Notes under the pieces: model-generated
The model's input: the letters and a program-made list of their open reading frames with translations, nothing else
Databases searched by the model: none
What the model was told of the DNA's origin: nothing
Origin: a virus
Lineage: Duplodnaviria > Heunggongvirae > Uroviricota > Caudoviricetes
Direction: 5' to 3' (one strand)
Length of the DNA stretch: 64,000 bases
IMG/VR virus record: IMGVR_UViG_3300025765_000001
Position numbers and translations under genes: made by a program
Part shown: positions 24-35,725 of the stretch, piece after piece
Position numbering within the stretch: the stretch's first letter is position 1
Layout: every line of letters starts with the position of its first letter

Positions 24-740
24 GGGGTTGTCTTTAGCTCCTCGACCGAACTGATTGTCGAAATCCTGTTTGGCGAAGGCGGCGACGACTCAAAGCAGTT
101 CGTGCATGAGTTGTACAATGCCTATCGAAAGTACGCCGCCACTCACGGTATCGGCGTAGAACTTCTCACCGAAGATGATGGTCATGTGATAGCCAAGTTT
201 CGAGGCTACGGCGTCTGGAAGCGGTTCCAGCACGAGTCTGGGAAACACTGCGTACAGCGTATCCCGCACTTGGAGAAGAATGGTCGGAAGCAAACATCCA
301 TGATCTCTGTTGCTCTGCTGCCCCTCTTGCCAGAGCGGGTTTACCCGCCTCTCAAGGAAGATGATCTGGACATTAAGTTCCAGACGGGGCGACAGAAAGC
401 AGGAGGCCAGAATGCAAATAAGGTAGCTAGTGCCGTCCGTATGACGCACAGACCTACCGGGCTTCAGGTCTTCATCAATGGTCGAGATCAGGGAGCTAAC
501 AAGAAAGAGGCACTCCGAATCCTAACGGCCAAGGTTCACGACGGACTATACGCACAGCAGGATAAGGAGTATAGCGAGTTCCGCAAACGTCAGATCGACG
601 GCGGTGGTCGTGGGAATAAGATCAGAACCTACAACTTCCTCGAAAGTCGAGTTGTAGATCATCGACTTGAACTCAAGACCTCGCAAGTCAAGCGAGTCAT
701 GAACGGCGAACTCGATATTCTTTTTGACAGTCAGAAGTAA
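24..740 (+). CDS. prfA: Class I peptide chain release factor, RF1-like (N-terminus unresolved)
   Basis: GGQ motif (AGGQNANK), RF1-type QRIP...GR..TS segment and C-terminal IRTYNF..SRVVDHR. The frame is open from 24 and encodes ELIVEILFGEGGDDS upstream of the ORF-track GTG at 102. Confidence 0.85.
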   Translation, partial: GVVFSSSTELIVEILFGEGGDDSKQFVHELYNAYRKYAATHGIGVELLTEDDGHVIAKFRGYGVWKRFQHESGKHCVQRIPHLEKNGRKQTSMISVALLPLLPERVYPPLKEDDLDIKFQTGRQKAGGQNANKVASAVRMTHRPTGLQVFINGRDQGANKKEALRILTAKVHDGLYAQQDKEYSEFRKRQIDGGGRGNKIRTYNFLESRVVDHRLELKTSQVKRVMNGELDILFDSQK

Positions 741-4635: not shown

Positions 4636-4711
4636 TGCTCTCGGAGGGACTCGAACCCTCGACAGACATGGTTTTAGAGACCGCCGCTCTAACCAACTGA
4701 ACTACGAGAGC
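4636..4711 (-). tRNA. Amber suppressor tRNA, anticodon CUA (tRNA-Trp-like body)
   Basis: Cloverleaf GCTCTCG/CGAGAGC-A73; D-arm GTTC-AGTTGGTTA-GAGC; anticodon loop CT-CTA-AA (plus-strand TAG at 4675-4677); T-arm GAGGG-TTCGAGT-CCCTC; one C-A mismatch in the anticodon stem; CCA not encoded. Confidence 0.9.
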
Positions 4712-4759: not shown

Positions 4760-5827
4760 TTAACCGGCCTTGAGCGTGTAATCGAGGAACGACTGCTCCA
4801 TCTGGAACTGCGGGAAGCTTTGCACACTTTCTTTGCACGCATTGATGATGCGGTCACGCACCACTGGCGTATTTGCGAAGAACTGCTCGACGGCTGTTCG
4901 GTCGGTGTCGAGGTTCGTGACCCGCAAGCCGGACTCGGCGAACAAGGCCTCGTAAACGGCTCTAGGTTTAATGACACGAGCGTGAGGTTGTTCTATCTCA
5001 TAACCCATTTTCGCCAGTTCTTCTTCTGTGAACACCAACTGTATCCACGCCTTGTTAATTTTTTTGTATAGGTGGGCACCGTGCCTGCTGCACCAGGGAT
5101 GGCATCTAGCGAAAATCGTGCCTTCCGGTGCGAGGACCGTTTTGGTTTTCTTAAGCAGATCAACCGAAGATTTTCCCTTGATATGGTCCAGTACATCGAA
5201 GAGGATCACAACATTGTACGGGCCGTTTTTCACTACCTCGTCCCAAGATGTAGTCAACAGTTTGTTGCCGTCTAGTTTTTCCCACTCGAAATTCGTTTTC
5301 TCTGGCTTGTTCAAATCGTGACCAACTACCTTGTGATATCCCTTTTCGGCTGCCTTGACGACGAAGTGCCCCTCGCCACAGCCGATGTCCAAGACATTGA
5401 TTTCCCTGGTTTGCGGCAGGACGATCTCTATGATGCCTTCCGCTCTCTCGAATTTGTCGTTCTCCGATTCGTCATTTACAATCAGGTCTGGAGAGACGGC
5501 GTGCGGCCAGTTTTTGGAATTCAACAATGCCGTCAGTTTTTTTAGTTCTTCTTCCGGCGTGAGTACCTTCTGAGCCGCCACTTGGGGTGGTGGTTGGGGC
5601 AACGGTGCTGGCTCTGGTGGGGGCGACGGTGGAGTTTCGACCGCCACAAGTGGTGCTGGCGGTGTCATAGGAGGAACGGAACCGGCCACGGCCTCGCCCG
5701 TCATCTGCTTCAGAATCACAACTAGTTCTTCTAGATGTGGGATAAATTTTGCCAGCGATTCGATTTCTTTCTCCTTCTTGTTGATTCGATCTAGAACTGC
5801 CTGAAGTGTATTCGTTAGTTCGCTCAT
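4760..5827 (-). CDS. Class I SAM-dependent methyltransferase with coiled-coil and Pro-rich N-terminus
   Basis: VLDIGCGEGH motif I, FDVLDH; paralogous to 18260-19138; likely start MSELTN at 5827. Confidence 0.8.
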   Translation of the reverse strand: MSELTNTLQAVLDRINKKEKEIESLAKFIPHLEELVVILKQMTGEAVAGSVPPMTPPAPLVAVETPPSPPPEPAPLPQPPPQVAAQKVLTPEEELKKLTALLNSKNWPHAVSPDLIVNDESENDKFERAEGIIEIVLPQTREINVLDIGCGEGHFVVKAAEKGYHKVVGHDLNKPEKTNFEWEKLDGNKLLTTSWDEVVKNGPYNVVILFDVLDHIKGKSSVDLLKKTKTVLAPEGTIFARCHPWCSRHGAHLYKKINKAWIQLVFTEEELAKMGYEIEQPHARVIKPRAVYEALFAESGLRVTNLDTDRTAVEQFFANTPVVRDRIINACKESVQSFPQFQMEQSFLDYTLKAG

Positions 5828-5875
5828 GTGTTTTCCTCTATTCTGACAACCTACCAGAATAGAGAATACACAAAA

Positions 5876-5906
5876 CAAAAATGCCGTCCTTCGGACGGCA
5901 TTTTTG
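5876..5906. terminator. Bidirectional intrinsic terminator
   Basis: CAAAAATGCCGTCC-TTC-GGACGGCATTTTTG. Confidence 0.8.
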
Positions 5907-5910
5907 CGGC

Positions 5911-7428
5911 TCACGCCTCGATCTGCTTTCTGAGACGATCAACGATCTCGGCGATCTGTCTCAAGGCCAGTTTCTCGGCACCTGGGACTATGATAGCCTT
6001 GTCCAAGCTGCCGTAGTGATGTTCAAGACACTGGAGCAACAGAGCCTTGATCTTTTCCTCGTCCGGCGAGTGCTGGAGGGTGCTGTTAGCGTAAAGAACT
6101 TCTAGCTGATGTTCCTTCTCAGTGGCCCACCGACGAATCTCTTCCTCTGGTACGTTACCATGACGAATCTCTTTCAGATGTTCTCTGGCACGCTGAATGT
6201 CGATGTCGTGATGTACAAGAATCTGTTCCGCTTCATCCAATAGTCTAACAACATGATAGGCGAACTTCATGTCGAACCCGTACTGCTCACGAATCTCTTT
6301 TCGCTTGCCGTGCGGGTCTTTGGTTCGCATCTTGTGTAGCTGGCTGTAGGCGTAGCCCTTGAACTTGTGCCATGCCCCTTTGTGTAGAAACAGCTTCCGG
6401 TTTTCACGGACCATCTCCCCGATCTGCATGCAATGTAGAACGCAGAATCTAGGAGTGAAGAGGTAGGGTAAGCGGCCAGCGAGTTATCATCTTGCGACGG
6501 CACTTTTCCAACCGCTCCCCTCCGAACCGGACTTGATACTTTCATGTCATCCGGCTCTCCAGTTAATTCCTCAACGAAGTCTTTGCCATGTGGACGGCTT
6601 TCCCGTCCTCGGACTACTACGGAGGCTCCGTTGCCATAAGGGTCGCCCCTTTTAGGCAATCTCATGTTCCGTGCGTAATTGACGATAGGACTGCTACAGG
6701 TTCCCGACTCATGCCCTTTAGGTCGCAGATTCGACTCGCTCTCACAGGAACGTCGTTTCGGGATTCGACAACTCGCTCTTACAGAAACGTCGTTTCGGGA
6801 TTCGACACCCTTGACTCCCTATCGTGTGAGAAACCAGAAGTATAGTCATCGTATCTGGCCCGATGATTTGACGGGCTGGGCATTCGGGTTCAACCAGTGT
6901 AGGCTTAACCATGCAGTCCGGGCCTCGATGGGCAGACGGCTTGATGACTTTGCCGAATCCCGCCTTTTCAGACATGCTGTTTTTCCCTACGGCTTTCGCT
7001 TTTAGGTAGGTCTGATGGCCCAAGAAGTTCATTTGACGTTCTTCCTCTTCCCGTATTCTACGGGGATCAATGTCGATCATGTTCGGGTTGTTCTCCATAG
7101 CTAGGCTGAAATACTTGACAATAGAGAAAATCGAGAAGTCGTGAGACCTCCCTTTCCCGGCCAGATCGTCAGGATCAACTACGTGGTGTTCCTGCCACTG
7201 CTCGAACCTCTTCTTCTGCCTATCGAAACCCTCGATCTCGCCTGCGAGATGGGGAAATACCATCTCCTTCGGCGGGATGCAGAATCCATAGATGTCCATG
7301 TCGTTCGTGTCACTAGACATACCGTAAGCGACCGAACCCATCATGGTTTCGTAGTGAATGTTGTCCGAGAGCCAGTGCGGGGGCCTAATTAGGCCCTTTT
7401 CTTCGATGGTTCTTACAGTGCTTGGCAT
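5911..7428 (-). CDS. Pol-beta superfamily nucleotidyltransferase (RlaP/nrdC.11-like), split by a group II intron
   Basis: 5' exon has GS.AYG...DT.DMD and ends at NNPNMID (~7070); 3' exon from 6462 reads LFTPRFCVLHCMQIGEMVRENRKLFLHKG. Confidence 0.8.
6463..7070 (-). mobile_element. ORF-less group II intron (~0.6 kb)
   Basis: 34-nt domain V GAGCCGGATGACATGAAAGTATCAAGTCCGGTTC (6557-6524) with AGC triad; DVI ending CTTACCCTAC; DIII-like GGACGGGAAAGCCGTCC; no RT ORF; 5' end not GUGYG. Confidence 0.85.
6734..6807. repeat. 37-bp tandem duplication inside the intron
   Basis: ACTCGCTCT(C/T)ACAG(G/A)AACGTCGTTTCGGGATTCGACA x2 with 2 mismatches. Confidence 0.9.
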
Positions 7429-35653: not shown

Positions 35654-35725
35654 GACCTCGTAGCTCAATGGTAGAGCATCGCCCTTTTAAGGCGAGGGTT
35701 GTGGGTTCGAGTCCCACCGGGGTCA
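35654..35725 (+). tRNA. tRNA-Lys(UUU)
   Basis: GACCTCG/CGGGGTC acceptor, TAGCTCAATGGTAGAGC, loop CTTTTAA, GGTTCGAGTCC. Confidence 0.95.

Follow-up and report, generated by a model that had tools for sequence, protein, structure and literature searches.

The rlaP locus

The analysed stretch of 64,000 nucleotides (the window) belongs to a 435,946-nt virus record of a huge phage (IMG/VR IMGVR_UViG_3300025765_000001), which is about 85% complete. On its minus strand, the window carries in two parts a gene for RlaP, a characterised RNA-repair enzyme that extends damaged RNA 3′ ends by one or two NMPs (PMC12776372) and that is common in jumbo phages (PMC7824862). Exon 1 (7428-7072, codons 1-119, ending N-M-I-D) scores 27.1 bits against PF10127 (RlaP nucleotidyltransferase), above the gathering score, and is 75% identical to the intronless homologue P0002, which itself reaches 72.8 bits. 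Exon 2 (6462-5911, 183 uninterrupted codons from L-F-T-P-R onward) is recognised by its 80% identity to P0002, by 51 viral homologues and by a weak PF10127 match. Neither exon contains a stop or a frameshift, and a GGAGG motif precedes the start of the gene. The host gene had already been called a nucleotidyltransferase in an earlier interpretation of the bare letters (the sequence-only reading), and the domain match agrees with this.

Relative to the intronless homologues the interruption is a discrete insertion, as befits a group II intron, and exon 1 reads on into it as an open reading frame of 228 codons that ends at 6742 (ORF list). At the corresponding position all viral homologues read at the junction (46/46) have a single residue between the flanking D and L, nearly always Ser; among 112 full-length homologues position 120 is occupied by Ser (100), Ala (9) or Gly (3). 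None of the junctions available in the window rebuilds D-S-L, which means that exon sequence is missing. The comparison with intronless homologues, suggested beforehand as a check on the proposed junctions, thus indicates the absence of exon codon 120. The window copy therefore differs from the RlaP family, which both of its exons match, in being interrupted and in lacking, through loss, a codon for the small residue that is conserved at position 120. A second rlaP was not found in the 436-kb record, and a sequence search yielded no solved-structure relative of RlaP. Elsewhere in the window, Rfam identified two tRNA genes (4636-4711, minus strand; 35654-35725, plus strand), and an ORF at 102-740 (plus strand) resembles a peptide chain release factor with its GGQ motif.

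Architecture of the inserted element

The inserted element (7071-6463, minus strand) comprises 609 nt compared with 2408 nt in its intact relative L068, and was delineated by the Rfam DV/DVI model and by alignment to relatives. RF00029 matches positions 6559-6463 with 60.6 bits (E 2e-9), in line with the canonical DV and DVI described before. Domain V (6557-6524, 34 nt) is intact with an AGC triad and a GAAA loop; domain VI (6522-6463) contains a bulged A6469 at position -7 and ends with AC (6464-6463), and the 3′ splice site at 6463/6462 corresponds to an identical junction in L068 and L081. As the Rfam DI-DIV models gave no match in the window even at E 10, the Infernal search proposed in the sequence-only reading succeeded solely for DV/DVI, and the other domains were assigned by comparison.

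In domain I, α is located in loop Ib (7041-7035) on the basis of complementarity and position, and finds a perfect α′ partner at 6754-6748 and a wobble version at 6791-6785, in copies 2 and 1, respectively, of a tandem repeat described below. The AGC of the λ′/ε′ loop (6978-6976) is a signature feature of IIA introns (PMC12350094). EBS2 (AUCAU) occupies 6867-6863, and the d3 hairpin (6819-6797) exposes δ (G6810) and EBS1 (GGUGUC, 6809-6804) in an 11-nt loop, as judged from the loop position and from covariation in intact relatives. The segment 6682-6669 contains, according to cofold energies, the 3′ strands, now orphaned, of I(ii) and I(i), the helices that close domain I. Domain II (6659-6631) has a closing helix that covaries in the relatives, and domain III (6626-6581) lacks the 3′ strand of its basal helix, a helix present in the relatives in four compensated variants. 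The adjoining 18 nucleotides (6580-6563) encode the last six codons of the intron protein (IEP), T-S-L-R-N-stop, matching the IEP ends of L068, L074, L077 and L081 and overlapping the orphan 3′ strand of DIV. No RT ORF exists in the window element, as stated earlier, but a true ORF-less architecture with a small DIV is not supported; the supposed tiny DIV is a deletion leftover carrying the end of the IEP gene.

By descent the element is a group II intron of subclass IIA, characterised by a DV with AGC triad, a DVI with bulged A and 3′ AY, the AGC λ′/ε′ loop, a δ pairing with exon 2 and a branch A at -7. It does not qualify as an intact, splicing-competent intron; the 5′ GUGYG, the closure of domain I by I(i) and I(ii), the DIII basal helix and the DIV helix are all missing.

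Intact relatives and three lesions

In L068, L070 and L071, introns that start with GUGCG occupy the identical position behind rlaP codon 120. The L068 intron contains an RT/maturase/HNH ORF and has the same 3′ junction as the window, as does L081; L070 and L071 share its 5′ junction. Several RlaP homologues end just past the insertion point in V-R-R-V-T-A, a translation of GUGCG, and their loci carry the same-site intron; P0240 ends in the same read-through peptide. Six further homologues (P0010, P0026, P0029, P0030, P0051 and P0104) of 203-209 aa, compared with the usual 300 aa, end in a tail that is similar among them and different from this one, possibly reflecting an interruption at another shared site. 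A very close relative of the window element is L077, in which the first few intron bases are missing from the available sequence and the IEP (597 aa) is intact; the identity over DI-DIII is about 98%, with 10 substitutions and one additional base difference over about 453 nt. Pfam domains in the IEPs of the relatives are RVT_1, Intron_maturas2 and an AI2M-like HNH. The helices that the window has lost are maintained in the relatives by compensatory changes. When the structure is laid over the relatives, 95% of the cells are paired and 11 pairs show two-sided changes, compared with 26-45% of cells when the structure is slid, with four compensated versions of the DIII base and one compensated pair in I(ii); these counts lean toward the structure, since L068 served as its template and the aligned rows are not independent of one another. 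In the L068 intron the RT gene (L068:5878-7667) is frameshifted by one base, in two assemblies, and its EBS1 pairs in only 4/6 positions, so that it may be starting to decay as well.

Alignment to these relatives reveals two deletions and one duplication in the window. The first deletion (scar at 7072/7071; alignment to L068, L070, L071 and L075) removed 23 nt, consisting of codon 120 and intron nucleotides 1-20. Lost with it are GUGCG, the 5′ strand of I(i), 4/9 of the bases on the 5′ side of I(ii) and the in-frame stop that follows exon 1. The loss of the stop lets rlaP read through for 228 aa, and with GUGCG the ε and λ partners (G3-C4-G5) are gone. The odd 5′ end TTGAT, previously taken as the intron start, thus corresponds to nucleotides 22-26 of the intact intron and marks a deletion scar rather than a splice site. 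Cofolding of the domain I closing strands gives -18.5 kcal/mol in L068 versus -3.6 to -5.6 kcal/mol in the window. The second deletion (scar at 6581/6580), of about 1815 nt, took the DIII 3′ basal strand, the DIV 5′ strand and the RT/maturase/HNH ORF except for its last six codons. DIII, ε and λ are important elements of IIA introns. A weaker alternative closure of DIII with the IEP tail can be computed in the window, which speaks against a dead intron.

The third lesion is the 37-bp tandem duplication in domain I noticed in the sequence-only reading (TRF: 6807-6734, 2.0 copies, 94%; copy 1 6807-6771, copy 2 6770-6734). It is private to the window and absent from every relative, L077 having one copy. 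One substitution predates the duplication and two postdate it in copy 1. TGTCGA indeed occurs at 6807-6802 and 6770-6765 and is complementary in 6/6 positions to TCGACA (7076-7071), as stated earlier, but EBS1 was not duplicated as a whole. The duplicated unit starts at 6807 and copies only UGUC (4/6 EBS1 bases) and the 3′ strand of the d3 stem, whereas δ, the 5′ strand of that stem and the two leading bases of EBS1 occur only once. For the repeat region, MFE folds are uninformative, as they miss the d3 hairpin even in the intact L077. Among 12 derived substitutions, 10 are G-to-A or C-to-T (p = 0.04, a weak bias). Certain microhomology at the breakpoints of the window deletions amounts to no more than one base, which would fit either slippage or illegitimate recombination, and no copy of the deleted segments exists elsewhere in the 436-kb record.

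One might object that assembly errors produced the deletions or the duplication, and that the gene of the actual phage either contains an intact intron or has none. The record is indeed metagenomic and a second assembly may share its reads. We nevertheless consider artefacts extremely improbable; a Logan contig (SRR5747427) from a different assembly pipeline is identical over 4790 nt, a 463,644-nt contig encodes the identical 228-aa product, and the repeat copies differ at two sites.

Splice register and residual splicing

The splice register could be fixed by comparison with the relatives. In all of them the d3 loop comprises 11 nt with δ at position 4 and EBS1 at positions 5-10. The δ pair is G with C in the window, L068 and L075, and A with U in L072 and L076, two introns of a sister group in a metallophosphoesterase gene, in which δ, EBS1 and EBS2 change together with the exons, including an AUCAU/AUGAU swap between EBS2 and IBS2. 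Applied to the window, this register places the exon end after 7069. EBS1 then pairs in 6/6 positions with GACAUU (two G-U), EBS2 in 5/5 with IBS2 (AUGAU, 7080-7076, -12 to -8 of the original splice site), and δ with the first base of exon 2; IBS2 fits only this corrected register. The proposed EBS1 was hence sought in the right loop and with the right partners, but one of its ends was misplaced by 2 nt and the other lies in the stem. With 600 nt to search and the junction left free, a single 6-nt match is close to what chance would give.

The earlier frame arithmetic holds, with 7071/6462 out of frame and both 7072/6462 and 7069/6462 in frame. Three junctions were discarded: 7071/6462 for its frame; 7071/6464, which gives D-N-L and pairs with repeat copy 2, as it needs a non-AY 3′ end and the relatives fix 6463/6462; and 7072/6462, as it drops the conserved residue and leaves EBS1 unpaired.

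The remaining junction raises the possibility that the truncated intron still splices inefficiently, alone or with a host maturase, by cutting after 7069 (new intron 5′ end GAUCC) and ligating to 6462, which would produce a 303-aa RlaP with the exchange Ser120Ile. The persisting EBS1, EBS2 and δ pairings, the in-frame join they define and the intact DV and DVI argue for this scenario and against a dead intron. Shifted 5′ splice sites are moreover known from C.te.I1 and fungal rRNA introns. However, the frame of the 7069/6462 join follows automatically from EBS anchors that lie upstream of the deletion, and is no sign of selection. The known introns with shifted sites keep GUGYG, which is lost here. 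The AUU of IBS1 is a remnant of stem I(ii), so that exon pairing and domain I closure compete. The base of DIII is gone, as is DIV, the binding site of the maturase, and Ile occurs at position 120 in 0/112 full-length homologues. On balance we regard residual splicing as very unlikely. If it did take place, the element would be a natural minimal intron without a consensus 5′ end that gates a phage RNA-repair enzyme, and the minimal requirements of IIA ribozymes would need revision.

Decay of the intron and of rlaP

In our view, the locus very probably represents a recently decayed IIA intron that pseudogenises rlaP. A mobile IIA intron with RT, maturase and HNH would have retrohomed into a conserved position after rlaP codon 120, as suggested by the intact relatives at the same site. 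As the alignment shows, it then lost 23 nt over the 5′ splice site and about 1.8 kb between DIII and the ORF end, and gained the 37-bp slippage duplication. Left without GUGCG, the ε/λ partners, the helices closing domain I, the base of DIII and the maturase, the remnant is expected to be splicing-deficient, and its transcript would yield the truncated 228-aa fusion. We infer the loss of splicing and of RlaP from the established structure of IIA introns and from the dependence of such introns on their protein in vivo (PMC4424553). The gene rlaP would accordingly have turned into a pseudogene recently, as one among several accessory genes in decay. The open exons and the intact DV/DVI might be held against this interpretation, but recent decay predicts them too. 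The sequence-only reading had left the choice between a splicing-dependent switch and a dying element. For the switch we found no evidence, the oddities mapping to deletions or to the slippage duplication in the alignment; the second option is borne out by the lesions mapped against intact same-site relatives.

A dead intron does not by itself imply a dead enzyme, and RlaP might survive split into the 228-aa N-terminal fusion and a 172-aa product translated from ATG 6429. Both ORFs exist, the exons are intact and genes in pieces are known in phages. Yet ATG 6429 lacks a Shine-Dalgarno sequence, in contrast to the GGAGG at the real start, the conserved S-L-F-T-P segment is present in neither product, and splits among the homologues are found only at intact introns, contig ends and isolated frameshifts. 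Such a split enzyme is thus very unlikely. On the reading preferred here, the decay of intron and gene constitutes a well-resolved case of intron death in a phage, for which rlaP is probably dispensable.

A second remnant of the same intron family lies in a metallophosphoesterase gene (G000 C1:148841-149268, corresponding to L002:1169-1596), a site occupied by intact versions in L072 and L076. The 5′ junction, DI-DIV and the RT are deleted and exon 1 is fused in frame to a maturase scrap; four exon codons and about 1.6 kb through the RT were lost, together with about 0.4 kb inside the ORF. Since this remnant, too, lost its 5′ junction and its RT, both phage introns were disabled in the same way, amid other decaying genes. 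Its breakpoints share a few bases of microhomology. Nearby, an NAD-dependent epimerase/dehydratase gene (L002:393-1102) is frameshifted and lacks its N-terminus.

A related RT/maturase, which the sequence-only reading had suggested seeking in the rest of the genome or the host, did not turn up in the 436-kb record (about 85% complete). RVT_1 has no match in it, and the only relative of the L077 protein there is the C-terminal scrap of the L002 remnant. Against the dead-intron interpretation it may be argued that the host may carry a related maturase and that the record is about 85% complete.

Comparison with known group II introns

Phage group II introns, including ORF-less examples and one that sits in a decayed pseudogene, are already known, and truncated bacterial copies are common. 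According to Zimmerly and Semper 2015 (PMC4424553), truncation or inactivation has affected most copies of group II introns in bacteria, and 55 of 135 distinct copies were found fragmented by Leclercq and Cordaux 2012 (PMC3522654). Like these, the window remnant is derived by deletion from a mobile RT intron, has kept DV/DVI and has no partner in the same genome record. It differs in residing in a huge phage, in breaking a coding gene and in having a 98%-identical relative by which each lesion can be mapped. With Ll.LtrB and mitochondrial-like IIA introns it has in common the AGC loop, the δ-exon 2 pairing, EBS1/EBS2 and the branch A at -7, although the 5′ end, domain I closure, DIII base, DIV and ORF are lost; the likeness of the protein is drawn from the Pfam domains of the relatives.

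Merk, Jones and Eddy 2025 (PMC12350094) described 20 phage introns delimited by a GWYRG 5′ site, of which six are ORF-less, one interrupts a pseudogene in an advanced state of decay and three have an RT-encoding intron in the same genome. The window element is likewise without RT in a phage coding gene, and resembles their decayed-pseudogene case. Surveys that count ORF-less phage group II introns by DV/DVI should thus be read with caution, as the ruin was revealed here only by intact relatives. C.te.I1 of Clostridium tetani, which splices in vivo, and the fungal rRNA introns are also ORF-less and have an apparent splice site that does not coincide with GUGYG; these IIB introns, however, keep the motif 1-33 nt downstream of the shifted site (PMC4024640, PMC4424553), whereas the window has lost the motif itself.

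The intron family

The family, an active one of subclass IIA, was found in rlaP (L068, L070, L071, L081, P0240), in the metallophosphoesterase gene (L072, L073, L076) and at other sites (L075, L082, L085, L087), and it repeatedly occupies one site each in rlaP and in the metallophosphoesterase gene. In the literature searched, no paper on either intron site was found. Searches by blastn against plasmids and phages gave only DIII- or DV/DVI-level matches, and two domain I patterns and a single IEP query retrieved nothing in viral contigs. Introns pulled by a DIII pattern proved unrelated, and two genome contig matches (L078, L079) were chance matches in coding DNA. The insertions of the family fall between codons, and the 5′ exons often contain AAC-ATS-RTC upstream of IBS1. 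EBS2 reads AUGCAU in L070, L071 and L075 and could pair with AUGAU or AUCAU by bulging one base.

The intact relatives also contain an open frame of 151-153 codons that runs from domain I across DI-DIII up to or overlapping the IEP start (L077:46-504; L068 about 5420-5880; L082:1544-1999; L071:1216-1671; L076:3176-3637; partial in the window at 7033-6742). It is in the same frame at both ends in three subgroups despite indels, at a chance level of about 0.3% by base shuffling. L088, L090, L170 and 49 distant introns lack it, and the corresponding run in L169 is only partly in the same frame. This frame is possibly a leader ORF coupled to the IEP, and it may resemble the pre-ORF of yeast aI1/aI2.
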